DNA of 64,000 nt from an uncultured Gammaproteobacteria bacterium (GTDB taxonomy: Bacteria > Patescibacteriota > Microgenomatia > UBA8517): assembly GCA_964357925.1 (NCBI GenBank), contig CAYHMW010000002.1, positions 23,367 to 87,366 on the forward strand. Reading direction: 5' to 3'. Made by a program: the position numbers and the translations under genes. Below are positions 9,473 to 48,839 of this stretch, in pieces (positions within the stretch are counted from its first letter, which is position 1; each line of letters opens with the position of its first letter). The notes under the pieces were generated by a model. It did no database searches. It worked only from the letters and a program-made list of their open reading frames with translations, and was not told the origin of the DNA.

Positions 9473-9510
9473 GGCTTCAACCTCCTTACATATTAAAGTA
9501 AAATATAGTC

Positions 9511-27502: not shown

Positions 27503-28161
27503 TACAATCACCTGCCCGGAAAATGAGTTACAACTTTATCAAAAGATTCATCGACGTCTTTGGGTCCATCTTCCTTCTGCTTTTTTTTTCTCCAATAATT
27601 CTAATCACCTCAATTGTCATTAAATTGACCTCCAAAGGTCCAATAATGGCAGATACTCCGAAACGTGTCGGCAAAGGTGGCAAGCTATTCAAGCATTATA
27701 AATTCAGAAGCATGGTTGTAAACGCTCACAAACTTCTTCGAACAGACCCTAAGTTTAAAAAGCTTTATAAGAAATACAAGGCAAGCAGCTATAAACTCCA
27801 CGATGACCCAAGGGTAACTCCAGCTGGAAAATTTATCAGAAAGCACTCGATCGACGAAATCCCGCAACTAGTCAATGTTTTAAAAGGGGAGATGAGCATT
27901 GTTGGTCCGAGGCCATATTATGGAGACGAATTAAAAGAGCAGCAAAAGAAATACCCACATACCCAAAAATTGGTCAAAGAAGTCCTTTCTGTCAGACCCG
28001 GAATCACAGGCTATTGGCAAGTAACAGGGAGAAGTGAAGTTAATTTTGATAAGAGAATTGAAATGGATGCATATTATGCAAGAAAAAAATCGATCATCTT
28101 GGATTTCCTTATACTTCTAAAAACCCCTTGGGCTATGGTCACTGGCCGTGGCGCAGTGTAG
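27499..28161 (+). CDS. polyprenyl-phosphate sugar-1-phosphate transferase (bacterial sugar transferase, WbaP/PglC/WcaJ catalytic-domain type), the initiating enzyme
   Basis: Single N-terminal TM helix. PF02397 motifs are present: KRFIDVFGS, KFRSM and DEIPQLVNVLKGEMSIVGPRP. Confidence 0.9.
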   Translation: MIQSPARKMSYNFIKRFIDVFGSIFLLLFFSPIILITSIVIKLTSKGPIMADTPKRVGKGGKLFKHYKFRSMVVNAHKLLRTDPKFKKLYKKYKASSYKLHDDPRVTPAGKFIRKHSIDEIPQLVNVLKGEMSIVGPRPYYGDELKEQQKKYPHTQKLVKEVLSVRPGITGYWQVTGRSEVNFDKRIEMDAYYARKKSIILDFLILLKTPWAMVTGRGAV

Positions 28162-28170
28162 AATATTTGT

Positions 28171-34371: not shown

Positions 34372-34809
34372 ATGTTAATCGGTCAATACGAAACAACAAT
34401 TACAGAGGCCAAAAGGGTAGCAATACCCAAAAAATTTAGGTCCGAGCTCGGAAGTAATTTTATCATCGCACGTTGGTATGAAAAGTGTTTAGTTCTGGTA
34501 GCCAAGAATAACTGGACATCGCTCATGGAACGCGTCACAGGCACAAACGCACCTGTCATAGCACCAGTGAGACGCACAGACCGTTTTATTTTGGGTTCTG
34601 CCTTTGAGCTCACACCAGATAGTCAAGGTAGAGCAGTCCTGCCAACTTCCTTAGTGGAATATGCCGGACTCAAAGTAGAAGTTGTCTTTGTAGGGCTTGG
34701 CGATCGAGTTGAAATATGGGACAAAACACATTGGGAAAAAGAAGAAAGTGAATTGGCAAATATTGCCGGTGATTTAATCGAAAATCTGAACAATGGACAA
34801 AGGCCATGA
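34372..34809 (+). CDS. mraZ: transcriptional regulator MraZ
   Basis: MLIGQYETTITEAKRVAIPKKFR matches the MraZ N-terminus (MF.GE.....D.KGRV.IPAKFR). The two-repeat architecture and first position in the dcw cluster also fit. Confidence 0.85.
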   Translation: MLIGQYETTITEAKRVAIPKKFRSELGSNFIIARWYEKCLVLVAKNNWTSLMERVTGTNAPVIAPVRRTDRFILGSAFELTPDSQGRAVLPTSLVEYAGLKVEVVFVGLGDRVEIWDKTHWEKEESELANIAGDLIENLNNGQRP

Positions 34810-35695
34810 AAGCGTATTACTGCTCGAGGCAGTAGACGCTCTGCACATTAAGAATCAAGCTCTATATGTTGATGCCACATTAGGTGGCGGAGGACATACG
34901 ATCGAAATATTAAAGAGAGGTGGAAAAGTGATCGGAATTGAGGCAGACAAATCAATAATCGAGATTGCCAAAAATAACATAGAAGAAGCCCGCCCTGTCC
35001 CTCATCCTTTGGATGGGAGATTGCTTCATATTGTAAATGGCAACGCGAAAGACATTGATTTAATAGTCAAGAATTATACTCACGAACCAGTATTTGGTGT
35101 TCTATATGATCTTGGGGTCTCGAATTATCACTTTGGAAGTGAGGAAAGAGGTTTTTCATTTAAAAATCCAAAAGCGAGACTTGACATGAGACTAGACCCA
35201 GACACTCAATCAGTCACAGCTGCGGATTTGCTCAATTTGTTGAGAGAAGATCAACTATTTGAACTATTTAGGTACGCAATGGATTACAAGAGTGCCAAAA
35301 AAAGTGCATTTCTGATAGTTAATTTTAGGAAAACTAAGAAATTTGAAACCGTGGGTGATCTCTTGGACGCAATTGAGTCGTGGAAAAGTTCAAATACTAA
35401 AGTTCATCCCTCAACGAAAGCCTTTTTAGCACTAAGGATCGCAGTTAATCGAGAGCTTGATAACGCTGAGGAATCAATCAATAAAGCGGTGCATTTACTT
35501 GAAAAAAGTGGAAGGTTGAGTGTTATCACGTTTCATTCAACAGAAGACAGATTAGTTAAAAACATTTTTAAAGCTTTGGCAGAGAGTCACAAGGTTAAAA
35601 TCATTACAAAAAAGCCAATTACACCAAGTGCAGATGAGATTGAAAGGAATATTAAAAGTAGAAGCGCGAAATTAAGAGTTATTGAAAAATTATGA
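34793..35695 (+). CDS. rsmH: 16S rRNA (cytosine1402-N4)-methyltransferase RsmH (MraW)
   Basis: HESVLLLEAVDAL...YVDATLGGGGHT motif. Positioned after mraZ. Confidence 0.9.
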   Translation: MDKGHESVLLLEAVDALHIKNQALYVDATLGGGGHTIEILKRGGKVIGIEADKSIIEIAKNNIEEARPVPHPLDGRLLHIVNGNAKDIDLIVKNYTHEPVFGVLYDLGVSNYHFGSEERGFSFKNPKARLDMRLDPDTQSVTAADLLNLLREDQLFELFRYAMDYKSAKKSAFLIVNFRKTKKFETVGDLLDAIESWKSSNTKVHPSTKAFLALRIAVNRELDNAEESINKAVHLLEKSGRLSVITFHSTEDRLVKNIFKALAESHKVKIITKKPITPSADEIERNIKSRSAKLRVIEKL

Positions 35696-35973
35696 AAAGA
35701 AAAATTATATTACCAGTTATAATAGGCATATTTATTTTTGCCAACGTTTTTATGACAATCATCGCGGGGGCTGAGGGCACGAAGCTTGGGGACATTGAAA
35801 AGAAGCTTGCTACTCTTAAGGAAGACAAAAGGAAATCAGGGATAGAACTGGTCGAAGCGAGTTCTCTCAAGAATATTAAAGCGGGAGTAAACGAGCTGGG
35901 TTTTGCCGAACCAACACGAATAGTATATTTGTTAGAAGAAGGATCACTCGCTAAACTTCCTGACAGTTTCTAA
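35692..35973 (+). CDS. ftsL: cell division protein FtsL-like (single TM plus coiled coil)
   Basis: 93-aa protein with one TM helix and a short coiled-coil region. Position is between rsmH and ftsI. Confidence 0.55.
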   Translation: MKRKIILPVIIGIFIFANVFMTIIAGAEGTKLGDIEKKLATLKEDKRKSGIELVEASSLKNIKAGVNELGFAEPTRIVYLLEEGSLAKLPDSF

Positions 35974-35974
35974 T

Positions 35975-37693
35975 ATGCATGTCAGATTCAAGGTAATCTT
36001 TATCATCTTCATTTTACTGACCATTAGCGTTATTTCTCGGCTCTTCTATTGGCAAGTTCTGGAAGGAGGTAGAATCGCTGCCCTTGCACGTGCTCAACAA
36101 ACTGGTGGTCAAAGATTAGAGGCTCATAGGGGCAATATCTTAGATAAAAGCGGCAGTTGGTTGGCTGCCAGCGGAGATAGTTGGCTTCTATACGCATCTA
36201 TTCCAGATTTGGAAAATGGTGCTGGTATGATAGCAAAACTTCTCGCCCCTCTCTTTATCGATTTGGAATCAGAAACTGCAAAAGAGGATCTCCTTAAGGA
36301 AACTCTAAGATTAGAAAATAACATCAATCAACCTAAAGTTGTCTGGGTCCCATTAAAAAAACGAATCGACGATGAAAAAAGACGAGAAATAGAAGCACTT
36401 GGCATCAAGGGATTAGGTTTTGAGACAGAGGAGGCAAGAGTATACCCCGAAGGTAGTAGCTCTGCCCATCTCCTGGGATTTGTTGGCAAGGACGAAGACG
36501 GCAATGACAAAGGTTATTTCGGTCTCGAAGGCTTTTACGATTTGACTTTAAAAGCTAGAACTGGCTATCAAAGTACGACCGCCAATGCACTTGGCTCTCC
36601 GCTAGTATTTGGCAAAAAGAAACGCATAGATGCTGTGGGAGGAGTGGACTTGATAACGCACATAGACAAAGCTATTCAATTAACAGTTGAAGAAAAACTT
36701 GAAGAAGCCCTCGTTCGCTACGGCGCAAAGTCAGGCACAGTTATTATCATGAACCCACACACAGGTGGAGTATTGGCAATGGCTTCTTCGCCCAACTACG
36801 ACCAAAAAACATATTACGATTTTGGCGACGATCTATTTAGAAATCCAAGCATTAGTGATAGTTTCGAACCAGGCTCGGTATTTAAGCCCATTGTTATGGC
36901 AGCGGCTTTTGATGCAGGCGTCGTTAAACCAGACACAGTATGCGATATTTGCGATCGCTTCTTCAAAATAGACAAATATACAATTGGCACTTGGGATGGA
37001 AAGTATTATCCAAATTCCACAATGATCGATGTCATCAAACATTCGGATAATGTTGGAATGGTTTTTGCCGGACAAAAATTGGGCATCGAAAAATTTAGGA
37101 AATACATCTCAGACTTTGGCTTTGGACAAATCACAGGGATAGATCTTGAAGGAGAAAGTTCTCCTAAATTAAGAGGAAATGGGGAGTGGAGCATGGTGGA
37201 TCTTGCTACTTCCACATTTGGCCAAGGTATTGCAGTCACACCGATTCAATTAATTAAAGCGATATCAATTATTGGTAACGGTGGTGTTAGTGTCACACCA
37301 CAGGTAGTTGATAAAGTAAAGCTAGGTAGTTGGGAGGAGGATGTTGCACCGGAATTAGGCGACAGAGTGATAAGTGAGAAGGCTGCAAGAGAAATAACAG
37401 AAATAATGGTTTTGGCTGTTAAAGAAGGTGAAGCCAAATGGGCAGTTCCTAAAGGTTTCAAAATCGCAGGCAAAACAGGTACAGCACAAATTCCGGTCCT
37501 AGGACACTATGACGAGGAAAAAACAATCGCTTCGTTTGTAGGTTATGCTCCTGCCGACAACCCAAAATTCACCATGCTTGTGACTCTTCGGGAACCAGAA
37601 AGTTCAACCTGGGCAAGTGAGACCGCAGCCCCGCTCTGGTTCGATATCGCCCTGGATATTTTCCCATACTTAGGCGTAGAACCTGAAAAATAA
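35975..37693 (+). CDS. ftsI: class B penicillin-binding protein, division transpeptidase FtsI
   Basis: SxxK (SVFKP), SxN (HSDN) and KTG (KTGTA) motifs. N-terminal TM anchor. Confidence 0.9.
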   Translation: MHVRFKVIFIIFILLTISVISRLFYWQVLEGGRIAALARAQQTGGQRLEAHRGNILDKSGSWLAASGDSWLLYASIPDLENGAGMIAKLLAPLFIDLESETAKEDLLKETLRLENNINQPKVVWVPLKKRIDDEKRREIEALGIKGLGFETEEARVYPEGSSSAHLLGFVGKDEDGNDKGYFGLEGFYDLTLKARTGYQSTTANALGSPLVFGKKKRIDAVGGVDLITHIDKAIQLTVEEKLEEALVRYGAKSGTVIIMNPHTGGVLAMASSPNYDQKTYYDFGDDLFRNPSISDSFEPGSVFKPIVMAAAFDAGVVKPDTVCDICDRFFKIDKYTIGTWDGKYYPNSTMIDVIKHSDNVGMVFAGQKLGIEKFRKYISDFGFGQITGIDLEGESSPKLRGNGEWSMVDLATSTFGQGIAVTPIQLIKAISIIGNGGVSVTPQVVDKVKLGSWEEDVAPELGDRVISEKAAREITEIMVLAVKEGEAKWAVPKGFKIAGKTGTAQIPVLGHYDEEKTIASFVGYAPADNPKFTMLVTLREPESSTWASETAAPLWFDIALDIFPYLGVEPEK

Positions 37694-37720
37694 GTACATG
37701 TTTGCTATAATCCAAAGTTC

Positions 37721-38473
37721 ATGAAAGATGTCTCAGCCGTAGTCCTCGCGGCAGGAAAAGGAAGTCGACTAAAAGGGAACAAACCTAAAGTTCTCAAAAT
37801 TCTAGGTGGACAACCAATTATTATTCGAATACTGAAACTGCTCGACAAGCTTAAAATTCAAAATCGAATTCTGGTTCTCGGGCACAGATCCAACACAATT
37901 CTAGACAAACTCTTAAAATCTAATTACAAAGAAAATATCTTAATTCAGAAAGAGCCCCAAGGAACGGCCCACTCACTTCAATTTGTTATTAGGCTAATAA
38001 GTACAAAAGAAGTTCTCGTACTTTATGGAGATGATTCAGGACTTTATAGACCACAAACCATTAAGAATTTTGTTAAATACCATATAAATTCAGGAAACAA
38101 AGCTACCTTCATGGTTTCAAAAGTTAATCAGAAAACAGATATAGGCGGAATACTTCTAGATAAAAAAGGATATGTCATGACAGTTGTCACCCGAAGCCAG
38201 ATGGAAGAACACGATATTAATCAAATACGTAACCTCTGTGGAGCTTTTTGTTTCAATTCGCAATGGATTTCCAAAAACATATCAAATATACCAAAAAGTG
38301 AAATTAGTGGTGAGTATCCGTTGCCAGGCATAATCAAAATAGCAAATTCTCAGGAAGTAAAAATCGGCAGCTATTTATTGCCGGATCAAAATGAATGGAA
38401 CAGTCTGAATACTAATAAAGAATTAATAGAAGCTAGAAAAAAGATGAAAAAAAAGCTGCAAATTAAAAAATGA
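37721..38473 (+). CDS. sugar-1-phosphate nucleotidyltransferase, GlmU N-terminal (uridylyltransferase) domain-like; no LbH acetyltransferase domain
   Basis: AVVLAAGKGSRLK...PKVL, PQGTAHSL (cf. GlmU EQLGTGHA). Confidence 0.6.
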   Translation: MKDVSAVVLAAGKGSRLKGNKPKVLKILGGQPIIIRILKLLDKLKIQNRILVLGHRSNTILDKLLKSNYKENILIQKEPQGTAHSLQFVIRLISTKEVLVLYGDDSGLYRPQTIKNFVKYHINSGNKATFMVSKVNQKTDIGGILLDKKGYVMTVVTRSQMEEHDINQIRNLCGAFCFNSQWISKNISNIPKSEISGEYPLPGIIKIANSQEVKIGSYLLPDQNEWNSLNTNKELIEARKKMKKKLQIKK

Positions 38474-39453
38474 CTGAAAGAAAAATAGACTTCCATATTC
38501 ACTATAACCCAGAAATTGATTCAACTGCGTACGAGGCGATTGATCGTGCAAGAGAAAGAGGTATTGTGGCGATGGCTTTGATGGGTAAACAACTTGTCTC
38601 CCCCCATTTCAATGATTTTCAAGAATACGGGAAAGAAATAGGAGTCGACGTTTTTTCAGGGATGGAGTTGGTCACTCAAGACGGAAACATTGGCATGAAC
38701 ATCATCGCAATTGGCTTTGATCCCCTCGCTCCTTCTATCGAAAAATGGCGTTCTGATCTTGAAAACAAGGATATTATGGCACAAAGATATAAGGCTCAAT
38801 ACGAATATCTTTTGAATTCTGGTTACATTTTTCCAGAAACAGAAGAAGCAAACAACATACTATCGACACTGCTTGACGGCTCAAATGACCAGGGAGCGAT
38901 TGAATACTGCAGAATGATTTCTGACTATCTGCCTAACCACCAGCATATCGAAGTTGATAAATTAAGCGAACCAGAAACATGGAAAGAAACTGTTGAGAAG
39001 TATAGCGATATTCCAGAGTATTCACACATGTTGGAGGCTAAGTTTTTATATAAAAAACATTTTGCATTTGGCAAACCAGGGAACTTTATCAGGTTTACTG
39101 ATACAAATGAAGCTATTAATCGAATTCATAGTGCAGGAGGAGTTGCTCTATATTCGCCAGAAGGAAGTTTTGAACAAGAAAAATGGGATCGACTTATAGA
39201 ACTCCAAATCGACGGAATAATGGCATGGCATGGTGGAAAATTAGGAATGTCTGGCCACTCAAAAGATGTTCCACTAAGCGTCTTAAAAAATGCACTTCGA
39301 TCTGATCTCCTTATTCTTGGAGGGAGTGACTATCAAGCTAAAGACTGGCAAGCAGGTGTTGGAAACGGAGAAATGTTCATTAGTTCTAGGCGACTTGGAG
39401 ACTTGAGAAAATATCAAAAGCAAATGGATCGAAGAATCTTTAACAATACTTGA
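38470..39453 (+). CDS. PHP-domain-like metal-dependent phosphoesterase (tentative)
   Basis: IDFHIHYNPEIDS...A..RGIVAMAL N-terminal His motif and a C-terminal GGSDYQ (GSDAH-like) motif. Confidence 0.35.
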   Translation: MTERKIDFHIHYNPEIDSTAYEAIDRARERGIVAMALMGKQLVSPHFNDFQEYGKEIGVDVFSGMELVTQDGNIGMNIIAIGFDPLAPSIEKWRSDLENKDIMAQRYKAQYEYLLNSGYIFPETEEANNILSTLLDGSNDQGAIEYCRMISDYLPNHQHIEVDKLSEPETWKETVEKYSDIPEYSHMLEAKFLYKKHFAFGKPGNFIRFTDTNEAINRIHSAGGVALYSPEGSFEQEKWDRLIELQIDGIMAWHGGKLGMSGHSKDVPLSVLKNALRSDLLILGGSDYQAKDWQAGVGNGEMFISSRRLGDLRKYQKQMDRRIFNNT

Positions 39454-39463
39454 GCTAAAAATA

Positions 39464-40585
39464 GTGAGAAAAATTAAAAAAGGTCTTCACATTGGAATTG
39501 CACTAATCGCAAATCTCATTTACGGTATGCCCGGGAAGCGGTTAAAGTTAATCGGTGTAACCGGAACAGACGGCAAAACAACAACTGTCTTGATGATTTA
39601 CCACATTTTAAAAAATGCGGGCTATAAAGTCGGGTATATTTCAACAATCGGCTATGACGTAGGCGGTAAACGCTTTGATCAGGGTTTACATGTGACTACA
39701 CCATCTAGCTTAGTGCTGCAAAAATTGTTGAGAGCTGCAGTCAACAATAAGCTCACTCATCTAGTACTTGAGTCAAGCTCTCACGGCCTCGATCAAAACA
39801 GGTTATTGGGATGTCACTTTGAAGTGTCTGTGATTACAAACATAACCCCCGAACACCTGGATTATCACAAGACTTACGATAATTACTTAAACACAAAGGC
39901 AAAACTGCTGAGTCTTTCAAAAGTAAAGTTAATAAACAAAGGTGATCGAAGCTATAAGGAATTGATAAAAAAATTTCCAGATAGTATTGCTTTTGAATTT
40001 GAGGACTTCGGTTTTGCAGAAAAATATAATAACGAGAACGCAGCGGCAGCCGCCAAAGTCTGCAAGGAAATAGGTATAAAGGAGAAGGAAATTAAAAAAT
40101 ATCTTAAATCTTTCGAGTTTCCTGCTGGGAGATATGATGTTGTACAAAAGAAACCTTTTACAGTTATAGTTGACTTTGCCCACACACCAAACGGTTTAAT
40201 AAATTTTCTAAGTTCACTTCCTAAGTCCAGTGGAAAACTAATTCACATCTTCGGATGCGCAGGTGAAAGAGATAAATACAAACGTCCGGAAATGGGAAAA
40301 AATTCAGCGAGTTTCGCTGACATTATTATATTAACCGCCGAAGATCCCAGGTCAGAAAAGGTTGAAGACATTAATGGCTCAATTAAAAAAGGAATACCTA
40401 AGTCATTCAAAGGCAAGTTGATAGAAGTTCATGATCGTGGAAAGGCAATTGCCACAGGGATAAAGTTGGCAAAAGTAGGTGATAGAGTTGTCATAACAGG
40501 CAAAGGACCGGAAAAATCTAACAACATTGGAGGAGTTGAATACCCTTGGTCTGATTTAGAAGAAGTTAAAAAATATTTAGAATGA
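39464..40585 (+). CDS. murE: Mur ligase, MurE-like (UDP-MurNAc-tripeptide synthetase), N-terminally short
   Basis: ATP-binding loop LIGVTGTDGKTTT appears about 30 aa from the start. Mur ligase middle and C-terminal regions are present. Position is after ftsI. Confidence 0.6.
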   Translation: MRKIKKGLHIGIALIANLIYGMPGKRLKLIGVTGTDGKTTTVLMIYHILKNAGYKVGYISTIGYDVGGKRFDQGLHVTTPSSLVLQKLLRAAVNNKLTHLVLESSSHGLDQNRLLGCHFEVSVITNITPEHLDYHKTYDNYLNTKAKLLSLSKVKLINKGDRSYKELIKKFPDSIAFEFEDFGFAEKYNNENAAAAAKVCKEIGIKEKEIKKYLKSFEFPAGRYDVVQKKPFTVIVDFAHTPNGLINFLSSLPKSSGKLIHIFGCAGERDKYKRPEMGKNSASFADIIILTAEDPRSEKVEDINGSIKKGIPKSFKGKLIEVHDRGKAIATGIKLAKVGDRVVITGKGPEKSNNIGGVEYPWSDLEEVKKYLE

Positions 40586-41355
40586 ATATCAAATCACTCA
40601 ACAAAGAATGCGTTAAAATGGCCAATCGCTATGCAAAACTAAATATTCACAATAAAAAAATACCAACTCCATATTACATAAACAGCATTCAAGGACATTT
40701 CTCAGAGATCTTTAATATGGTTGGTATTCCATCGGAAAAAATTATTGAGATTTGGCGAATCTATAAAAGTAATAAATTTCCATACGGTAGGTACAGAGGT
40801 AAGGGAACACCGGAAGAAATTGAAGACGCGGTAATTAAAGTTTCAACTGCAGTTGGGCTACCACTCGATAATAGTAGCATTGAAGTAATACTAAATTTTA
40901 TGAAGCTTTATGGGCTTGGCGTTGATTGTTCAGGATATGTTTACAACCTCTTAAGTAGCGCCTTTAAAAAAATAGAAGGCAGTGATCAACAGCTGAAAGC
41001 CAGCCTTAACTGGATGGCAAAAAGCAAAAGAGATGTTTGGAATGCTGGAGCGTTCGCTTTTGCTGGCAAAGCTTCAGTATTAGTTACGCCAGAAAGACTT
41101 CAACCGCTTGATCTAATTCTCTTAAAGGATAAAGACCAAAAGTATGTTCATGTAGCTTTAGTAATAAAACACAATGGTAAATTATTAATAACCCAGTCAC
41201 AAATATGTATGAATCCAAGTGGTGTTAGATCTGATAATGCTGTGGCGCTACAGCCAGAGCCTTTATTTGATTATCATCCTGAAATAGGTCCGAGCTGGGA
41301 GGATCTCTATAAGAAAGGTAGACTTGAATTTAGAAGATTAAAAATACTTGCATGA
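40582..41355 (+). CDS. NlpC/P60-family (permuted papain-fold) cysteine peptidase/amidase-like protein, no signal peptide
   Basis: GLGVDCSGYVYNLL resembles the catalytic Cys motif G-x-DCSG-x-V. Downstream PLDLILLKDKDQKYVHVALVIKHNGKLL resembles the GDL.FF...HVGIY His region. There is no N-terminal hydrophobic segment. Confidence 0.45.
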   Translation: MNIKSLNKECVKMANRYAKLNIHNKKIPTPYYINSIQGHFSEIFNMVGIPSEKIIEIWRIYKSNKFPYGRYRGKGTPEEIEDAVIKVSTAVGLPLDNSSIEVILNFMKLYGLGVDCSGYVYNLLSSAFKKIEGSDQQLKASLNWMAKSKRDVWNAGAFAFAGKASVLVTPERLQPLDLILLKDKDQKYVHVALVIKHNGKLLITQSQICMNPSGVRSDNAVALQPEPLFDYHPEIGPSWEDLYKKGRLEFRRLKILA

Positions 41356-42482
41356 AAAATATTAAAACACTTATTTACCATCCCGCCAAAAGGTATCTTG
41401 CTCATTACTACTTAAAAATTTTGAAACTTTTAGGCTGTGAAGTAATTGGAATAACAGGAAGCGCTGGCAAAACAACTACTAAGGAAATGATTGCATCTGT
41501 ACTCAAAACTAAATACAAAGTTGCCTACTCATTAGCCAATATCGACCCTGTTTATAACATTCCCAATACAATTCTCAAAACACCTCTATGGACCAAAAAA
41601 TTAGTTCTAGAAATGGGGGTAGAATTTCCGAGGGAAATGAACTTTTACATATGGCTTGCGAACCCAGACGTTGGAGTTTTGACAAACGTTACTTGGACTC
41701 ACACTCAGTTTTTTAAAAATATCGAGGGTGTGGCTGCTGAAAAAAGTAAACTTATCAAATCGCTCCCAAAAAATGGACTAGCAATTTTAAACAAAGACGA
41801 CGCGAGAGTCGCAAAGCTTGCACACAAAACAAATGCAAAGGTAATTTATTTTGGATCGGGCGAGAAAAACAAAGTACACGCAACTGATATTAAGTTTACA
41901 AAAAATCTTACTACCTCTTTCATATTACATGTTGGTAAAGAAAAAACTGAAGTTACCCTTGCAGTTCTTGGTAGGCATTTTGTTGATCTTGCTTTGGCAG
42001 CAGCTGCAGTCGGCAACAACAGTAAAATTCCACTTCAAAAAATTAGAGAAGGTTTGGAAAATTTCAAAAGTGAACCCCACAGAATCCACCCACACGTCTT
42101 AAAAAATGGAACTTTAATTTTAGACGACACTTACAACGCCAATCCAGAAGCAGTTCTTCGGGCAATAGATGTATTAAAAGAGGTTGGCAAAAGCAAAAAA
42201 ACAATTTTAGTTTTAGGAGAAATGAAAGAGCTCGGCAGTTACGCAAAATCCGGACATATCCTCGTTGGCAATTACGCCAAAAAGCAAAAAATTGCTAAAC
42301 TACTTAGCCTGGGGAAAGAAACACTGTATACAGTTGATGCTTTCGGAAAAGGTGGAAAATATTTTAAAAGTAAAAGAGAAATAGTAAAAGAGCTTAGAAG
42401 CTTAAAAACTCCCCACACAATACTAATAAAAGGTTCAAGATCAATGGGCATGGAAGAAATTGTAAAGACACTAATATCATAA
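41352..42482 (+). CDS. murF: Mur ligase, MurF-like (UDP-MurNAc-pentapeptide synthetase), N-terminally short
   Basis: VIGITGSAGKTTTKEM P-loop and a Mur ligase C-domain. Position is before ddl-mraY. Confidence 0.65.
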   Translation: MKNIKTLIYHPAKRYLAHYYLKILKLLGCEVIGITGSAGKTTTKEMIASVLKTKYKVAYSLANIDPVYNIPNTILKTPLWTKKLVLEMGVEFPREMNFYIWLANPDVGVLTNVTWTHTQFFKNIEGVAAEKSKLIKSLPKNGLAILNKDDARVAKLAHKTNAKVIYFGSGEKNKVHATDIKFTKNLTTSFILHVGKEKTEVTLAVLGRHFVDLALAAAAVGNNSKIPLQKIREGLENFKSEPHRIHPHVLKNGTLILDDTYNANPEAVLRAIDVLKEVGKSKKTILVLGEMKELGSYAKSGHILVGNYAKKQKIAKLLSLGKETLYTVDAFGKGGKYFKSKREIVKELRSLKTPHTILIKGSRSMGMEEIVKTLIS

Positions 42483-42486
42483 ATTC

Positions 42487-43518
42487 ATGAGCAAAAGGCT
42501 TAAAATTGCAGTTTTAATGGGCGGACGTACACCCGAATACGAAATATCTATAATTTCTGGTCAAAGTGTAACTAAAGCACTTGAAGAGAAGGGCCACATT
42601 GTGCTGCCTATTATTGTTTCCAGAGACGGTCAAATCTGGAAGTCGATCGACCCTGACGTTTTGTACAAATTACCAAACCCACTTCTTCTAAAAGGTACAA
42701 ATAAAGAAATTATTTCTACAAAAACAAAATCCCTCGAAAGCCCCACCAGTATTAAGCACCAAGGTGTAGATGTAATTTTCCCCGCAATGCACGGCCCTTT
42801 TGGCGAAGACGGAACAATTCAAGGACTTCTAGATGTACTAGATATTCCGTATATTGGCTCCGGTGTTCTGGCAAGCGCTATTGGAATGAACAAATATGTC
42901 TTTAGAAAAATATTAAATGGGAGTGGTATTCAATTTCCCAAATTTATAGCACTCAAAAAAAACGATGACCATCAAAACTTTAAAAAAATCTTAGGAAATA
43001 TGCCATATTTTGTAAAGCCAAATTCTCAAGGTTCATCTGTCGGCGCGTCTTTAGTTACAAAAGCCTCAGACCTTAAGGCGGCAATTTCCAAAGCGCTCCA
43101 ATATGGCGACACAGTTTTAATTGATGAGTATATTAAAGGCACCGAACTGACATGTGGTGTTATTGGTAATGATGAATTAGAAGCACTCCCAGTTGTCGAG
43201 ATCGTCACAGAAAGCGACTTTTTCGACTACAACGCCAAATATACCACGAGCACCACGCAAGAAATTGTCCCTGCGAGAATTTCGCCGGAACTAACAAAAA
43301 AAGTACAAGAATTAGCGAAAAGAGTGTACTTGGAAATTGGAGCAAGAGGCTTTGCTCGAGTAGACTTTATTTTACGAAATAATGAATTGTATGTACTGGA
43401 AATTAACACTATTCCGGGGCTTACACCCATGTCTTTGATGCCGAAAGCTGCGAAAGTTGCAGGCTATTCATACAGTGACTTAGTTGAAAAAGTTGTAGAA
43501 CTTGCATTAACCAAGTAG
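42487..43518 (+). CDS. ddl: D-alanine--D-alanine ligase
   Basis: KIAVLMGGRTPEYEISIISG N-terminus, HGPFGEDGTIQGLLDVLDIPYIGSGVLASAIGMNK, ATP-grasp C-terminus. Confidence 0.9.
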   Translation: MSKRLKIAVLMGGRTPEYEISIISGQSVTKALEEKGHIVLPIIVSRDGQIWKSIDPDVLYKLPNPLLLKGTNKEIISTKTKSLESPTSIKHQGVDVIFPAMHGPFGEDGTIQGLLDVLDIPYIGSGVLASAIGMNKYVFRKILNGSGIQFPKFIALKKNDDHQNFKKILGNMPYFVKPNSQGSSVGASLVTKASDLKAAISKALQYGDTVLIDEYIKGTELTCGVIGNDELEALPVVEIVTESDFFDYNAKYTTSTTQEIVPARISPELTKKVQELAKRVYLEIGARGFARVDFILRNNELYVLEINTIPGLTPMSLMPKAAKVAGYSYSDLVEKVVELALTK

Positions 43519-43536
43519 GCTATAATTATTAAAGAG

Positions 43537-44595
43537 ATGAACTTCTACAATACAGCACCTCTAGCACTTGGATTGATAGTATTCTCCTTTCTTATCACAA
43601 GCGCTCTAGTCATCCCATTTATCGACCTCCTTTACAAGTTCAAAATGCTGAGACGCAAAGAAGGAGACTTCAGGGGCAAAAAAGAATCTCTCTTCGATAA
43701 GCTTCATGACAAAAAAGCAGGAACTCCAATTGGCGGAGGCATTTTGCTGATAACTGTAGTCAGCGTAATGTTTCCATTTTTGTTTTCCTTTATCTCCAAT
43801 ATGGGTGTTTTCATCCACACCTCTTTTAAACTTAATTACGAGCTTTTGGTTATCTTCTTCACCTTTCTTGGTTTTGGAGCCATCGGTCTCCTGGACGATC
43901 TTGTTAAAATCTTCGGTAAACCAAAACCAAATATTTACGGCTCTGTATTCGGATTATCAAAAACCCAGAAGTTTGGACTTCAGTGGATTTTAGCTTTTGC
44001 CATCTCTTTTATGCTTTACTTTTTACTTGGAATTCAAATTCTTCACATACCAATTCTTGAAATAACAATCAATCTTGGTCCTCTATACTTACTTTTTTCT
44101 GCATTCATAATTGTTTTCTTTGCAAATGCCTTTAACATCACAGATGGACTCGATGGTCTATCCTCCGGCCTTCTCATGATTTATCTTTTTTCCTATGTCA
44201 TTATCGCAGCCAGCAACTTAGATACACCGCTTTTTATCTTTATTTCTCTCTGGCTTGGCTCAATAATTGCCTTCTTATATTTTAACGTTTGGCCAGCAAG
44301 AATATTTTTAGGCGATGCAGGAGCACTAAGCTTTGGTGCAATGATCGCTGTTATTGGATTAGTTATTGGGAACGTAACAACTCTTTTTATAATTGGAGGT
44401 TTATTTGTAATTGAGGCACTTTCTTCGTTGATTCAAATACTTGGACGAAAATTCCTGAAACGTAAAATTTTTCCCATTGCACCAATTCACCACACTTTTC
44501 TTTGGTTAGGTTGGGAAGAACCAAAAATTGTCATGCGAGCTTGGTTGGCAGGATTAATGCTAGCAATTTTCGGACTCTGGCTTGCAACTATCTAA
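43537..44595 (+). CDS. mraY: phospho-N-acetylmuramoyl-pentapeptide transferase MraY
   Basis: DDLVKIFG and NAFNITDGLDGLSSG motifs; 10 TM helices. Confidence 0.9.
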   Translation: MNFYNTAPLALGLIVFSFLITSALVIPFIDLLYKFKMLRRKEGDFRGKKESLFDKLHDKKAGTPIGGGILLITVVSVMFPFLFSFISNMGVFIHTSFKLNYELLVIFFTFLGFGAIGLLDDLVKIFGKPKPNIYGSVFGLSKTQKFGLQWILAFAISFMLYFLLGIQILHIPILEITINLGPLYLLFSAFIIVFFANAFNITDGLDGLSSGLLMIYLFSYVIIAASNLDTPLFIFISLWLGSIIAFLYFNVWPARIFLGDAGALSFGAMIAVIGLVIGNVTTLFIIGGLFVIEALSSLIQILGRKFLKRKIFPIAPIHHTFLWLGWEEPKIVMRAWLAGLMLAIFGLWLATI

Positions 44596-44598
44596 CTA

Positions 44599-45756
44599 AT
44601 GTCTAGATTATTTTTCTTAAGGCAAAAAAGGGCAAAACACAAAAGTCGCACGATTTCGCACCCCGGAAAGCGTCAAAATACAAGCAGAATACTCTTCGCT
44701 CTAACATTACTATTGACGGGGCTTGGCCTTATAGCAGTGTTTGATGTTAGTTCTCCTCAAGCGATAAGACTTTTCGGTGACCCATATTACTTTGCAAAAC
44801 AACAACTGATGTGGGCAGGGATTGGTTTGGGTGCTTTTGTTGGCGGAAGCGTTATGTCATACAAATTGTTAAGTAAGTACGCACTAGTTATTTTTGGCGT
44901 CTCACTATTATTACTATTGATTGTTTTGATACCAGGTATTGGCTCAAATGTCTTAGGTGCTAGAAGGTGGATAAGGTTAGGACCAGTTGGCATTCAGCCA
45001 TCAGAAGTAGCTAAGTTGGCAGTCATCATAATCATTGCAAAATTTGCAGAGGCAAAATATCCAGTTTGGTACGGTGTTTCAGTACTTGGTATTGTCTCGA
45101 CCCTCATAATGCTTCAACCAGATCTGGGGACAACAATAGTGGTTGCCTCAATTGGCCTGGTCCAGCTATTCGCGGCGGGCTACACGCTTGTAAATCTCGG
45201 TGCCATGGCAGCAGCAGGAACGGGCTTAGCGGGATTACTTGTTATATTTTCTGACTACAGAAGACAACGTCTTATGACGTTTATTAATAACCTCTATGAC
45301 CCATTAAGCCTAGATCTTACGGAAGCATATGGAGCTGGTTATCACATCAGACAGATACTGATCGCAATAGGTTCTGGTGGAATTCTGGGACTGGGAGTGG
45401 GCCAATCTCGCCAAAAACACCTTTTTCTTCCAGAAACAGCCACAGATTCAGTCTTTGCAATTATTGCTGAAGAGTTCGGATTTATTGGAGCAGCAACGCT
45501 AATCATACTGCTTATGTATTTTACACTTGTAGTTGTCAGGGTAGCCATGCACGCTCCTGATAAATTCAGCGCGATCTTGGCAATTGGCATAGCAGGTTGG
45601 ATTGGTGGGCAAACTATACTCAATCTTTCAGCAATGCTCGCTCTCGCGCCGCTTACAGGGATTCCTCTACCATTTTTCAGTTATGGTGGCTCCAGTTTGA
45701 CAATGACACTTTTTTCGGTTGGAATACTTGTAAATATTGGAAATTCAAAAAAATGA
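44599..45756 (+). CDS. ftsW: SEDS-family peptidoglycan glycosyltransferase FtsW
   Basis: SEDS motifs (QPSEVAKLAVII, PETATDSVFAIIAEEFGFIG). Position is between mraY and murG. Confidence 0.85.
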   Translation: MSRLFFLRQKRAKHKSRTISHPGKRQNTSRILFALTLLLTGLGLIAVFDVSSPQAIRLFGDPYYFAKQQLMWAGIGLGAFVGGSVMSYKLLSKYALVIFGVSLLLLLIVLIPGIGSNVLGARRWIRLGPVGIQPSEVAKLAVIIIIAKFAEAKYPVWYGVSVLGIVSTLIMLQPDLGTTIVVASIGLVQLFAAGYTLVNLGAMAAAGTGLAGLLVIFSDYRRQRLMTFINNLYDPLSLDLTEAYGAGYHIRQILIAIGSGGILGLGVGQSRQKHLFLPETATDSVFAIIAEEFGFIGAATLIILLMYFTLVVVRVAMHAPDKFSAILAIGIAGWIGGQTILNLSAMLALAPLTGIPLPFFSYGGSSLTMTLFSVGILVNIGNSKK

Positions 45757-46859
45757 GCAATAAAATTTTACTTACTGGTGGCCACGCAGGTTCGACAGCC
45801 CTCGCAACAATTAAGGCAATTCAGAAAGCCAGGAGAGCTACCCAAGAAATCTATTGGGTCGGTGCGGCTTCTGCGCACACGGGTATAAACACTGGCAAGA
45901 CTTTTGAAGAGCGAGAATTTGGCAAACACGACATAAATTATCTTAAAATTCATGCTGGCAAAATCCCAAGAAAGATTACTTTCTATGCCCTTATAAATTC
46001 CTTGTTACTGCCAGTGGGCTTCTTTGAGGCCTTGTGGCTAATCGCAAAGATTCGTCCAAATGTAATTGTCAGTTTCGGCGGCTACGCCGCATTCCCCGTA
46101 GTAGTTATTGGCTATCTAATGCAAATTCCCATAGTAATTCAAGAGCAGACAGTGGTAGCTGGGCTAACTAACAGGATAACTGCCCGCCTTGCAAGTAAAA
46201 TTGCAATTGGCAGGCCACAGAGTATGGATTTTTTCCCCAAATCCAAAACCGTACTGACTGGCCTTCCGCTTTCCGAGGACATAACGAGTTTGGGACCAAA
46301 GCCAAAAATTGGGAAACCACCAGTGCTTCTGGTAACAGGTGGCAGCAGAGGTGCAAGGCCAATAAATCAAGTAATAGGCAAGGCACTTACTGAAATCCTT
46401 AAAAAATTCAAAGTTATTCATCTGACTGGGGAGATTGATTTCTCAAGAGTCGAAGGTTTCAAAGATACACTTAGCGAGGATCTTGCGCGGAGATACGAAG
46501 TTCACGCACATGTTGCTCCTGATGAAATGAAAGAACTATATAAAAAATCTGACATCATAATATCGAGAGCTGGTGCAAACTCAGCTGCTGAAATACTCTC
46601 AGTTGGCCGACCAGCCATAATCATTCCGCTCCCAATTACATGGTTTGATGAGCAAAGGAAAAACGCACAACTTGCCGAAAATGCCGGTATCGCAGAAGTC
46701 ATTGAACAAAAGGACTTAAATAAACATACACTTTTGACCACCCTCAACAAAATTCTAAAAAATTGGGATGCTATGACCAAAAATTATGATCGATCCTGGG
46801 CAAAGCTCGACAAAAATGCGGCTAACAATGTGGCGGAAATAGTCCTCAGTTACTTATAG
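45753..46859 (+). CDS. murG: UDP-GlcNAc:undecaprenyl-PP-MurNAc-pentapeptide GlcNAc transferase MurG (GT28)
   Basis: Start at the internal ATG 45753 (MSNKILLTGGHAGS), forming an ATGA overlap with ftsW. The ORF track's 45597 start would overlap ftsW by 160 nt. Confidence 0.85.
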   Translation: MSNKILLTGGHAGSTALATIKAIQKARRATQEIYWVGAASAHTGINTGKTFEEREFGKHDINYLKIHAGKIPRKITFYALINSLLLPVGFFEALWLIAKIRPNVIVSFGGYAAFPVVVIGYLMQIPIVIQEQTVVAGLTNRITARLASKIAIGRPQSMDFFPKSKTVLTGLPLSEDITSLGPKPKIGKPPVLLVTGGSRGARPINQVIGKALTEILKKFKVIHLTGEIDFSRVEGFKDTLSEDLARRYEVHAHVAPDEMKELYKKSDIIISRAGANSAAEILSVGRPAIIIPLPITWFDEQRKNAQLAENAGIAEVIEQKDLNKHTLLTTLNKILKNWDAMTKNYDRSWAKLDKNAANNVAEIVLSYL

Positions 46860-47509
46860 TGGTAAAAGCAATAAATCTAGCTCTTGCCTTAATACTAATA
46901 GCATTCTCAATATTAGGTTTACCCAGAATCATCCGAATCAAGCACATAACATGTATAAGTGATAAATCACCATGTCGTGGCGAGACAGTTGAAAAAATTA
47001 GTAAGCACATTGGTATTCCAATTCAAGAGGCTCTAACCAGAGTTCAAAAAGAACTTAATAATAATTCTTTGATTAAGAGTTCAGAGGTAAAATACGTGTT
47101 TCCAAATTCAATTTCAGCCTCAATAGATTACAAAAAACCAGCATTGAGACTCAAATACATAGGTTTTTCTAACACAATTGTCGTTGATGAATCGGGAAGT
47201 ATTATCAGAACTGAAAACGTTGACAATCTACCAACATTGCTAATCGAAGGTAACGCAGGTGAACTTTCAAAATCTATTCCTCTAATTCTAAATTTAAACA
47301 AATATTATGGTTTCAACTATTTCACATTAACAAAAGATGTGTTAAGTACAAAAACAAAAGACGATATCGCTCTAGTAATACCGACAGATAATGATATTGA
47401 CATAACGCTTGGGTCAATAAATTTGACTCTTTCCCAGTTGAATAGGCAATTACAAGGAATTAGAATTGAAGAGATTGACTTTAGGTACAAAAACCCCATT
47501 GTAAGATAG
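46859..47509 (+). CDS. ftsQ: cell division protein FtsQ/DivIB-like (TM plus POTRA)
   Basis: N-terminal TM helix then a POTRA-like region. Position is between murG and ftsA. Confidence 0.55.
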   Translation: MVKAINLALALILIAFSILGLPRIIRIKHITCISDKSPCRGETVEKISKHIGIPIQEALTRVQKELNNNSLIKSSEVKYVFPNSISASIDYKKPALRLKYIGFSNTIVVDESGSIIRTENVDNLPTLLIEGNAGELSKSIPLILNLNKYYGFNYFTLTKDVLSTKTKDDIALVIPTDNDIDITLGSINLTLSQLNRQLQGIRIEEIDFRYKNPIVR

Positions 47510-48780
47510 TGAAAATGACTAAAAGCAAAATTATAGCCGCCATTGATATAGGTTCCTCGAAGGTGACATCGCTCCTCGCGCAAGCTGTAGTCGAACAGGC
47601 CACCTTAGAAACGGTCATAAATATTATGGGAGTGTCGACTGTGCCTTCAAAAGGCATAAAAAAGGGTCAGATTGTCGACATTGAAGAAGCAGTTGAAGCA
47701 ACAATAATATCTGTTGAAGGAGCAGAGCGGATGGCTGGCTACAATATTGACAAAGCGTTTGTCTCGGTGGGAGGGGGGCATATCCAATCGCAAAACAGCA
47801 AAGGTGTAGTCGCTGTATCGGATCCAAATGGTGAAGTTTCAGGTGAAGATGTTGGTCGTGTAATAGAATCGGCTAGAGCAGTTTCACTCCCTGCCTCAAG
47901 AGAAATCATCCATGTGATTCCAAGAGAATACATTGTCGATGGTGAAGCAGGCGTGCGTGACCCAGTTGGGATGACCGGAGTGCGTCTTGAAGTTGAGACA
48001 CATCTTGTGACAGCGAGTTCACCAGCCCTGAAAAACCTCACAAAGACTATAAAGGAAGTTGGCGTTGATATCGAAGAAACAGTTTTCTCAGCCCTCGCCG
48101 CAAGCCACTCGACACTCACAGGGACCGAGAAGGAATTGGGCTGTGTCCTCATTGATATTGGAGCTGGAACCACCTCAATTGCTGCACATATCGATAACGC
48201 ACTTGCCTATTCAGGCTCGATACCCATAGGTGCAAGAAATGTAACAAATGATTTAGCAATCGGCCTTCGGGTAACACTCGATACTGCAGAGAAAATAAAA
48301 ATTGCACTAAATAATCCTCCTAAAAGAGGTGATGATGGAAAGCAAATGGACTTGACTGAATTCGGCGCAAAAGAACACAAAAAGATTTCGACTAGAACAT
48401 TAACCGAAGGAATAATAAGACCACGCTTGAATGAAATATTTTCAATGGTCAAGTTAGATTTGGAGCGAGCAGGACTCATTCACAGAGTCCCTTCAGGCGC
48501 AATTCTCTGTGGTGGTGGAGCATTAACTTCAGGCATTGAGGAATCCGCAAGAAGAACGCTTGGTTTACCAGTTAGAGTTGCAAAACCCGGTGGAGTCGGC
48601 GGACTTATTGACGATACTGGCACACCTGAGTACGCAGCCGCCGTTGGACTAATCCTATATGGCGCTGGCTCTGGCGGAAAGTTTATAGAAAGTAAGCAAT
48701 TTATGCCAACAAAGCTCAGTCTTCCTGGAAGGGGCGCATTTGGTAACGCAGTCCGAATGATCAAAGATTTACTGCCGTAA
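47509..48780 (+). CDS. ftsA: cell division protein FtsA
   Basis: Actin-fold N-terminus IIAAIDIGSSKVTSLLA. Position is before ftsZ. Confidence 0.9.
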   Translation: MKMTKSKIIAAIDIGSSKVTSLLAQAVVEQATLETVINIMGVSTVPSKGIKKGQIVDIEEAVEATIISVEGAERMAGYNIDKAFVSVGGGHIQSQNSKGVVAVSDPNGEVSGEDVGRVIESARAVSLPASREIIHVIPREYIVDGEAGVRDPVGMTGVRLEVETHLVTASSPALKNLTKTIKEVGVDIEETVFSALAASHSTLTGTEKELGCVLIDIGAGTTSIAAHIDNALAYSGSIPIGARNVTNDLAIGLRVTLDTAEKIKIALNNPPKRGDDGKQMDLTEFGAKEHKKISTRTLTEGIIRPRLNEIFSMVKLDLERAGLIHRVPSGAILCGGGALTSGIEESARRTLGLPVRVAKPGGVGGLIDDTGTPEYAAAVGLILYGAGSGGKFIESKQFMPTKLSLPGRGAFGNAVRMIKDLLP

Positions 48781-48839
48781 CTTTTGACTTTCTGCCCTCA
48801 TCTGCTACACTGCGCTTAAGTTTTTTTTAGAGAGATTAT

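Follow-up and report, generated by a model that had tools for sequence, protein, structure and literature searches.

The 64,000-nucleotide stretch of DNA analysed in this work (positions 23,367 to 87,366 of contig CAYHMW010000002.1, GenBank assembly GCA_964357925.1), referred to here as the window, was found to carry a division and cell wall (dcw) cluster in which a gene, here designated X, lies between murE and murF. X (40582–41355; like the parts of the dcw cluster given below, on the forward strand) begins with ATG and encodes a 257 aa protein predicted to be a signal-less cysteine amidase of the NlpC/P60 superfamily, the first member here of a family that extends across the Patescibacteria. 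Its position between the two Mur ligase genes, as described in an earlier note made from this sequence alone, was borne out by the NCBIfam models TIGR01085 for murE (39464–40585, 373 aa; 357.9 bits against a cutoff of 257.3) and TIGR01143 for murF (41352–42482, 376 aa; 322.4 bits against a cutoff of 288.6). The start of X overlaps the murE stop codon by 4 nt (ATGA, 40582–40585) and its stop codon overlaps the murF ATG by another 4 nt (41352–41355). X is predicted to be co-transcribed with both genes and, because of these overlaps, translationally coupled to them. A longer N-terminus is impossible, as an in-frame stop codon lies only 4 codons 5' of the ATG.

On the evidence presented below, X is very likely an active cytoplasmic NlpC/P60 amidase that is functionally tied to the synthesis of peptidoglycan (PG) precursors. 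The gene is compositionally native, with a GC content of 0.359 and a GC3 of 0.279 (0.359 and 0.297 in murF), and a recent horizontal insertion was ruled out by this composition and by the tight packing of the operon. No paralogue of X was found in the window, and a sequence identical to the X protein is present on groundwater contigs from the 0.1 µm fraction of the Hainich aquifer.

Fold and catalytic residues

The open reading frame (ORF) contains, as the earlier note had stated, the cysteine motif GLGVDCSGYVY (residues 111–121, with the Cys116 codon at nt 40927–40929) and a downstream histidine region, HVALVIKHNGKL (residues 190–201, with the His190 codon at nt 41149–41151). Taken alone, X scored 16.5 bits (E 0.0082) against PF00877 (NlpC/P60), which is below the gathering cutoff of 23 bits, and E 0.02 against CHAP (PF05257), below the 26-bit cutoff, so that it does not qualify as a CHAP member. 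A single-sequence search of NCBIfam gave no match, and a phmmer search of the PDB returned nothing real, only spurious haemoglobin matches with E ~2.

In the family alignment, which comprises 38 aligned homologues with 34–53% identity, 33 of the 38 matched PF00877 at E ≤0.1 (best E 6.8e-6); a precomputed PF00877 match was present in only 4 of 49 homologue clusters. The profile built from the family alignment found E. coli Spr (MepS) as its best sequence-profile match (E 1.2e-3), with GvDCSG placed on Spr GIDCSG and ysHvalil on Spr grHVgiyi, which are the sites of the catalytic Cys and His of Spr. The AlphaFold2 model computed from the family alignment had a mean predicted local distance difference test score (pLDDT) of 94.2 and a predicted template modelling score (pTM) of 0.91, and displays an alpha+beta fold of the papain type, in which a helix starting with the catalytic Cys packs against a beta-sheet that bears the His. 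All meaningful Foldseek matches to this model were NlpC/P60 proteins, the top one being Spr (E 4.4e-4, probability 1.00). On this profile and structural evidence X is assigned, as the earlier note had proposed, to the cysteine peptidases of the NlpC/P60 superfamily, with the canonical Cys-then-His order in the model. The PF00877 assignment held for most homologues and, at superfamily level, for the profile, but not for X itself, which by the curated threshold is not a PF00877 member and represents a divergent family within the superfamily. The permuted papain fold and the LRAT/YiiX relationship suggested earlier were ruled out, as X follows the canonical order, its structural matches are NlpC/P60 and no similarity of the PLAAT/YiiX type was supported.

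The residues Y17, G73, K74, G75, G113, D115, C116, S117, G118, F160, D177, H190, S206, G214 and E249 are invariant in the family alignment. Because G113, D115, C116, S117, G118 and H190 are kept at 34–53% identity, the Cys and His motifs are not attributable to chance. The catalytic Cys motif, G113-V-D115-C116-S117-G118 (40918–40935), aligned with GIDCSG of Spr/MepS, and its DCSG is conserved in 73 of 73 non-redundant homologues from reference genomes. His190 (41149–41151), the predicted catalytic histidine, is invariant in the core part of the family and aligned with the catalytic His of Spr. Within Gln205-Ser206 (41194–41199) the serine is invariant and position 205 is the probable third residue of the triad, since it is occupied by Q (19), H (3) or E (1) in 23 core sequences and mostly by H in more distant ones, a spectrum expected at such a site, and the profile alignment puts it no more than one residue from Spr His131. 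The Cys-His dyad anticipated in the earlier note is thus intact, with a plausible third member, and X is predicted to be catalytically competent, given the invariance of D-C-S-G, H190 and S206 and the restriction of position 205 to Q, H or E.

In YkfC, Asp237 and Ser239, which flank the catalytic Cys, bind gamma-D-Glu in the S1 site, and across 2277 NlpC/P60 domains this Asp/Ser pair is, the dyad aside, the most conserved feature of the active site (PMC2954226). As the invariant D115-C116-S117 corresponds to that S1 pair, the acyl specificity of X would be gamma-D-glutamyl. The conserved Tyr located about 12 residues before the Cys in these enzymes (Tyr226 of YkfC, in 'PY.wGG'), whose site of action is the oxyanion or the scissile carbonyl, has no equivalent in the 12 residues before C116, where position 110 is variable; the invariant Y17 or Y31 of the N-terminal domain could stand in for it.

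Three parts set the family apart. The first is a helical N-terminal domain (residues 1 to ~110; 40582–40911) with no Pfam domain, whose secondary structure in the model is H3–18, E20–22, E25–27, H35–46, H51–61, H67–70, H77–91 and H100–109, and whose conserved residues include Y17, P30-Y31, N34 and W70/R72. This domain carries the second, the GKGxP loop G73-K74-G75-T-P77 (40798–40812), whose Lys74 is invariant in both subfamilies and a candidate for binding an anionic group of the substrate; of the 73 non-redundant homologues, 70 extend over this site (20 of 23 core and all 50 distant ones), and each of these has both G73 and K74. The third is the C-terminal strand motif E249-F-R251-R252-L253 (LEFRRL, 41326–41340; strand E248–253), conserved in the core subfamily, with E249 invariant and R251, R252 and L253 at ≥90% in the family alignment; it may form an S' or anion-binding site. 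The Cys helix and the His strand are also separated by about 20 extra residues.

Cellular location

The N-terminus of X is polar (MNIKSLNKECVKMANRYAKL), and no hydrophobic stretch at the N-terminus, transmembrane (TM) segment or lipobox is present in X or the other members of the family alignment (38 in all), in agreement with the lack of a secretion signal claimed earlier. The highest 19-residue Kyte-Doolittle mean is 1.06 in X, from the internal segment with the Cys motif, and at most 1.71 across the family, always from internal strands. Since such signals are absent from all 38 members and there is no room for an N-terminal extension, X is predicted to be cytoplasmic by every sequence criterion used. 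No match to a wall-binding domain of Pfam (SH3b, LysM or PG_binding) was found in X or the aligned homologues.

These results bear directly on whether X might be an ordinary wall hydrolase that works outside the membrane, either as an autolysin of growth and division or as a weapon against a host wall, after non-classical export or release by lysis. Such a role is very improbable. The structures nearest to the X model are indeed extracytoplasmic PG endopeptidases (MepS, CwlO, LytE and RipA), division proteins are also encoded in dcw clusters, and Patescibacteria are episymbionts that might attack the walls of their hosts. Against this stand the missing export signals and wall-binding domains, the neighbourhood of enzymes of the cytoplasmic steps rather than of ftsEX or secretion genes, the fusion of relatives to a cytoplasmic ATP-grasp enzyme (see below), and the lack of any phage or endolysin relationship: four family members gave no PHROG match, and tblastn gave no match in 50,697 phage records, by which a prophage endolysin origin of X was ruled out.

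Distribution of the family

A word-indexed search returned 49 clusters of homologues with lengths of 204–282 aa (most 245–280), the named ones being WWE3, Amesbacteria or 'Patescibacteria group'. An exhaustive profile search of 1.84 billion representatives gave 621 clusters, defined at 50% identity, with E ≤1e-3, of which 383 had E ≤1e-10 and 101 E ≤1e-30. A scan of one genome per species located 221 loci with a relative of X, nearly all in metagenome-assembled genomes of Patescibacteria, including WWE3, Ames-, Woese-, Shapiro-, Levy-, Davies-, Roizman-, Magasanik- and Dojkabacteria; several third-party annotation (TPA) assemblies with relatives carry the labels 'Saccharibacteria' or 'Gammaproteobacteria'. 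Two subfamilies were distinguished, a core one scoring >150 bits, which includes X, and a distant one at 60–110 bits, which has a shorter N-terminal domain and shares the Y..L...PY.N, GKGxP, DCSG and H motifs. The X family is a new, previously uncurated one within a well-known superfamily.

Both subfamilies occur in tandem at three of the loci, which are numbered with the prefix L. In L003 a core copy (8001–8825) is immediately followed by a distant-subfamily paralogue (8812–9537), and similar pairs are present in L015 (864–2431) and L017 (5506–7097), all outside any PG cluster, an arrangement that suggests two related but distinct activities acting together. Outside the Patescibacteria the combination of GKG and DCSG is rare; it was seen in a weakly matching (41 bits), Pro/Ala-rich multidomain protein of 1194 aa from a member of the Solirubrobacteraceae (Actinomycetota; L066, 7377–10961), with the motifs VGKGT...GLGVDCSGFVY in a very different architecture.

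Genomic context of the homologues

The surroundings of X relatives were surveyed at 73 non-redundant loci (23 core and 50 distant), where ORFs were called, four genes on each side were clustered and cluster representatives were identified with Pfam and NCBIfam. The commonest neighbour was a true MraY with the HHH motif, at 30 loci and immediately downstream at 17 of them. It was followed by ATP-grasp ligases (26 loci, in the distant subfamily only and mostly immediately upstream), Mur ligases (25), an ATE_C-like aminoacyl-tRNA transferase with Fem-like logic (18), a ThrC-like pyridoxal phosphate (PLP) enzyme (15), MurB (12) and MurA (5).

A PG-precursor gene lies directly beside the homologue in 9 of the 23 core loci, or 10 if the contig-edge murE of L025 is counted, and at 33 of the 50 distant loci PG genes are no more than four genes away. 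Binomial p values for this linkage were 8e-7 (core) and 5e-31 (distant) against an assumed 5% background, itself a rough estimate of ours for the fraction of genes that would fall no further than four genes from a PG gene if the genome measures ~1 Mb. The order murE-X-murF recurs in L006 (WWE3, 43% identity), L026 (29%), L013 (37%) and, with extra small ORFs, L024 (38%); L008 and L019 (Amesbacteria-like) have X-mraY-murE and L005 has X-ddl-murF, and the intergenic gaps around the homologues in relatives range from -8 to +84 bp. Homologues of X are thus linked to mur and mraY genes family-wide. The tie to the stem-peptide ligases read from the single locus in the earlier note is supported by the recurrence of its gene order in diverged relatives and by the linkage of the wider family, and weakened by the 13 of 23 core homologues that lie outside PG clusters. 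As L008 and L019 also have clear murC and murD genes, the subfamily of X accompanies the canonical Mur pathway and does not replace one of its steps.

In the distant subfamily 30 of the 50 homologues adjoin, or are fused with, an ATP-grasp ligase. In the fusions, proteins of 620–735 aa, the ATP-grasp domain (PF02655, E 4e-9 to 4e-11) comes first and is followed by a C-terminal X-like domain that likewise retains Lys74 (P0151, P0170 and P0179; L053 6036–8036, L057 6438–8645 and L074 658–2703). They occur in Magasanikbacteria-type genomes, where a true mraY and a gene for an ATE_C-like (arginyl/Fem-like) aminoacyl-tRNA transferase lie just downstream and murB lies upstream. As a separate gene the ATP-grasp ligase is found in L036, in the order mraY – NlpC-like – PLP enzyme – ATP-grasp – ftsW. 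No close solved relative of this ATP-grasp partner was detected (best E 0.18).

The fusions recall glutathionylspermidine (Gsp) synthetase/amidase and trypanothione synthetase, in which a CHAP amidase, a cytoplasmic papain-like cysteine amidase of the same superfamily as X, is paired with an ATP-grasp domain, and they suggest a couple of amide-forming and amide-cleaving activities. X might accordingly be imagined to reverse or proof-read the amide made by a partner ligase (an ATP-grasp enzyme in relatives, Ddl or a Mur ligase here), or to act as a glutaminase-like subunit providing ammonia for amidation of the stem peptide. The gamma-glutamyl amide is recognised by the S1 sites of NlpC/P60 enzymes, and ddl (42487–43518), whose product is the sole ATP-grasp ligase that the window has close to X, is one gene from X and directly follows the X homologue in L005. 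The domain order is however reversed with respect to Gsp (ATP-grasp N-terminal in the relatives of X), the context is PG and not thiol metabolism, and the Gsp-like architecture, a feature of the distant subfamily, is found neither in X, which stands alone, nor in the 23 core loci, none of which has a dedicated ATP-grasp partner; no homologue of that partner is present in the window either. The X model is also far less like Gsp amidase than like the PG endopeptidases, MurT or other amidation genes were not seen, and we know of no NlpC/P60 glutaminase. Partnership with a ligase is, on balance, quite unlikely for X.

Other genes near the distant subfamily are also unusual. In L036 (6952–11226) and, similarly, in L038, L047, L049, L054, L077 and L081, all Microgenomates-type, the slot between mraY and ftsW that is often occupied by murD is filled instead by genes for a distant NlpC/P60-like protein, a PLP enzyme of the ThrC-like (threonine-synthase-like, PF00291) kind and an ATP-grasp ligase, and no murD was seen in these loci; the three genes may form a module for a non-canonical stem-peptide residue. 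A ligase of the MurC/Mpl family with an Mpl-like N-terminal motif, GSD-x-G-x-YPP-x-S, is encoded near the distant subfamily (L036 2085–3485, L050 4239–5657, L059 6664–8004, L064 6529–7890, L056 592–1956 and ~20 more loci), in four loci directly upstream of the NlpC-like gene. Mpl being a recycling ligase, these could be recycling-type, peptide-adding enzymes; their identity as MurC or Mpl is ambiguous, with about equal murC and mpl NCBIfam scores below cutoff (e.g. 242 and 242 bits), and they offer weak support for the salvage role proposed below. In L013 (3271–4872) and L049 (4950–6101) domain 1 of a MurF-like ligase is replaced by a long hydrophobic extension at the N-terminus; the L013 protein is 533 aa long and its first ~160 residues resemble several TM helices, which hints at membrane-anchored MurF variants.

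The dcw cluster of the window

The dcw cluster (34372–50006) has the order mraZ-rsmH-(ftsL-like)-ftsI-NTP transferase-PHP-murE-X-murF-ddl-mraY-ftsW-murG-(ftsQ-like)-ftsA-ftsZ. Its murE product has the motif EDPR at residue 293, which we take to be the position of the DNPR motif of enzymes that add diaminopimelic acid (DAP), such as E. coli MurE, and by this motif the window MurE would be of the DAP type. This motif, and the coexistence of close relatives of X with canonical murC and murD, argue against a non-standard stem peptide in the subfamily of X, an idea of the earlier note that is speculative, as are its proposals of a proof-reading or transpeptidase activity. The possibility that the 'MurE' is instead a MurT/GatD-like amidation partner was rejected, as it scored 358 bits for murE against 31 for MurT and no glutamine amidotransferase (GATase) gene is nearby.

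MurE and MurF of the window both lack the UDP-binding domain 1 of Mur ligases: PF01225 is absent, the NCBIfam models are matched only from model positions ~89 and ~70, respectively, and there is no space upstream of either gene for the missing domain. Short ligases are also encoded in related loci (MurF of 404 aa in L036 and MurE of 413 aa in L008). Complexes and chimeras of MurE and MurF exist, with an interface that involves the N-terminal region of MurF (PMC10214165), and X might therefore be pictured as a non-catalytic scaffold or regulator bridging the two shortened enzymes in a Mur-ligase complex. This is highly improbable, because the Cys, the His and the Asp and Ser beside the Cys never vary among 73 sequences that reach down to <25% identity, which speaks for catalysis, and many homologues are encoded away from murE and murF.

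No Mur ligase beyond MurE and MurF is encoded in the window, and murA, murB, murC and murD are all missing from it while mraZ to ftsZ are complete, so that the Mur pathway genes of the source genome appear to be split over at least two loci. The partners of the distant subfamily (ATP-grasp ligase, ThrC-like PLP enzyme, ATE_C-like transferase, MurA and MurB) were likewise not found in the window. Between ftsI and murE (37721–39453) the cluster has two unusual residents, a 250 aa nucleotidyltransferase similar to the N-terminal part of GlmU and devoid of the acetyltransferase domain, and a 327 aa protein weakly similar to PHP-type phosphoesterases (3',5'-nucleoside bisphosphate phosphatase, E 2e-7), whose ATG overlaps the stop codon of the transferase gene. 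Upstream of the dcw genes a polysaccharide-synthesis cluster (22120–30246) includes genes for four glycosyltransferases (GT1/GT4, GT2), a mannose-1-phosphate guanylyltransferase-like NTP transferase, a Bac_transf initiating sugar transferase and a 691 aa DUF4012 protein.

Relation to characterised enzymes

A literature search found no paper that places an NlpC/P60 gene in a dcw or mur operon or connects one with PG synthesis of Patescibacteria, in keeping with the earlier note, whose author knew of no described dcw-embedded counterpart, and nothing relevant on the pairing of ATP-grasp and NlpC proteins in PG synthesis. Cytoplasmic NlpC/P60 enzymes that act on stem peptides are nevertheless established, and they use free peptides and not UDP-N-acetylmuramic acid (UDP-MurNAc)-tripeptide. 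Precedents are YkfC of B. subtilis and dipeptidyl peptidase VI (DPP VI) of B. sphaericus (PMC2954226). YkfC of C. trachomatis (CT127) has no signal sequence and cuts the bond between gamma-D-Glu and meso-diaminopimelic acid (mDAP) in free tri- and tetrapeptides, is inactive on UDP-MurNAc-tripeptide, MurNAc-tripeptide and lipid II, and rescues an E. coli dapD mpl mutant through the release of mDAP (PMC9928106).

With these enzymes (MEROPS C40) X shares the D-C-S motif of the gamma-D-Glu S1 site and the Cys-His-polar triad, and both groups include signal-less cytoplasmic forms with an accessory N-terminal domain that caps the active site. X differs in having no SH3b domain (no Pfam match), the place of which is taken by the helical domain of ~110 residues with the GKGxP loop, in the third triad residue (Gln, or His/Glu, in the X family and His in YkfC), in the ~20 residues inserted between the Cys helix and the His strand, in a sequence similarity below family thresholds, and in its location in a biosynthetic mur operon and not in a catabolic operon of the ykfABCD type. 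MepS (Spr), the best profile and Foldseek match, and the DL-endopeptidases LytE and CwlO are like X in their Cys and His motifs; they are exported lipoproteins or secreted proteins that act on the sacculus, while X has no export signal, has the additional N-terminal domain and sits among genes for cytoplasmic steps.

In the YkfC type a free amine on L-Ala is gated at the S2 site by a Tyr of SH3b1 and an Asp located 18 residues after the Cys (Asp256 in YkfC and Asp144 in AvPCP; PMC4600125, PMC2954226). This Tyr/Asp pair is lacking in X, and the region about 18 residues after Cys116 (133–135) is variable and gapped in the family. Without the gate, the S2 site could be open to a peptide linked to MurNAc, and X might then be a precursor-editing amidase that trims a wrong or surplus residue at or after position 3 of UDP-MurNAc-tri- or pentapeptide, lipid I or lipid II, providing quality control between MurE, MurF and MraY. 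The tight translational coupling of X with murE and murF would suit such a role, as would the direct neighbours met most often in the family (MraY at +1 in 17 loci, the Mur ligases and the Fem-like transferase), all of which handle UDP-MurNAc-peptides or lipid intermediates, and the conserved basic residues R72, K74, R251 and R252, which could bind the diphosphate. Editing is however without precedent, the characterised cytoplasmic NlpC/P60 enzymes being built to avoid precursors; hydrolysis of correct precursors would be futile, and more than half of the core copies are away from mur genes. It is considered unlikely.

A broader proposal joins the editing amidase to the ligases. Patescibacteria would have a dedicated cytoplasmic step of quality control or remodelling, in which the Cys amidase and carboxylate-activating ligases (MurE and MurF here, a dedicated and sometimes fused ATP-grasp enzyme in relatives) edit or remodel stem peptides while these are still attached to UDP-MurNAc or lipid and have yet to be exported. 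The distant subfamily would belong to a larger, unrecognised module for making a non-canonical stem peptide, together with the ATP-grasp ligase, the ThrC-like PLP enzyme, the Fem-like transferase and the MurC/Mpl-like ligase. This proposal is speculative and rather unlikely to be correct.

Proposed function

The function that we favour, tentatively and by analogy, is that of a salvage amidase of the YkfC/MpaA kind, which would free the diamino acid, together with L-Ala-D-Glu, from soluble stem peptides for the adjacent MurE. Cys116, activated by His190 and oriented by Gln205, would attack the gamma-D-glutamyl amide of a PG stem peptide, with Asp115 and Ser117 holding the D-Glu moiety as in other NlpC/P60 enzymes. 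The helical N-terminal domain, with Lys74 of its GKGxP loop, would close the S2 side, so that only small soluble substrates and not the polymeric wall could enter. Free tri- and tetrapeptides from turnover of the cell's own wall, or from the host, would be cleaved, and the diamino acid released would supply the DAP-type MurE encoded next to X, just as the YkfC product (mDAP or Lys) feeds MurE. X would then be the equivalent of YkfC in Bacillus and Chlamydia or of MpaA in E. coli, the zinc-dependent gamma-D-Glu-mDAP amidase which, with Mpl, serves the same function of releasing mDAP from murein tripeptide; MpaA has an unrelated metallo-carboxypeptidase fold, and its likeness to X is functional only.

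Salvage is supported by the EDPR motif of the window MurE, and it fits the general amino-acid auxotrophy of Patescibacteria. The signal-less chlamydial YkfC provides a precedent (PMC9928106). Both the free-peptide substrate and the salvage role are nonetheless inferred, and several observations weigh against them. The features by which YkfC-type enzymes recognise free L-Ala (the SH3b1 Tyr and the Asp at Cys+18) are absent from the X family; a peptide permease, an LD-carboxypeptidase or an L-Ala-D/L-Glu epimerase did not recur among the neighbours at the 73 loci, where the recurrent genes are biosynthetic (MraY, Mur ligases, MurA/B, ATP-grasp and the Fem-like transferase); 13 of the 23 core loci have unrelated neighbours outside PG contexts (e.g. 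L001, L003, L007 and L009); and the ATP-grasp fusions of relatives suggest coupling to a ligation step and not simple catabolism.

Implications

NlpC/P60 enzymes are textbook extracytoplasmic wall hydrolases, and the few cytoplasmic ones known are encoded in recycling operons. Here a whole family appears to be cytoplasmic and built into biosynthetic operons, those of mur and mraY, in the candidate phyla radiation (CPR). With ~620 clusters at 50% identity, the family has no curated model and no literature was found on it; what is new in it is the N-terminal domain, the cytoplasmic location and the recurrent embedding in mur operons. To our knowledge, its carriers are bacteria with minimal genomes that rely on hosts for their amino acids and whose walls have never been chemically characterised. 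If X salvages a diamino acid or D-Glu from scavenged wall peptides, this would explain how MurE is supplied in auxotrophs and would make host peptidoglycan a nutrient. If it edits precursors or works with an ATP-grasp enzyme, a new step would be added to a pathway that is conserved everywhere else and serves as a major target of antibiotics. In both cases X, a soluble protein of 257 aa, gives a concrete entry point to the cell-wall biology of the CPR that can be tested cheaply.

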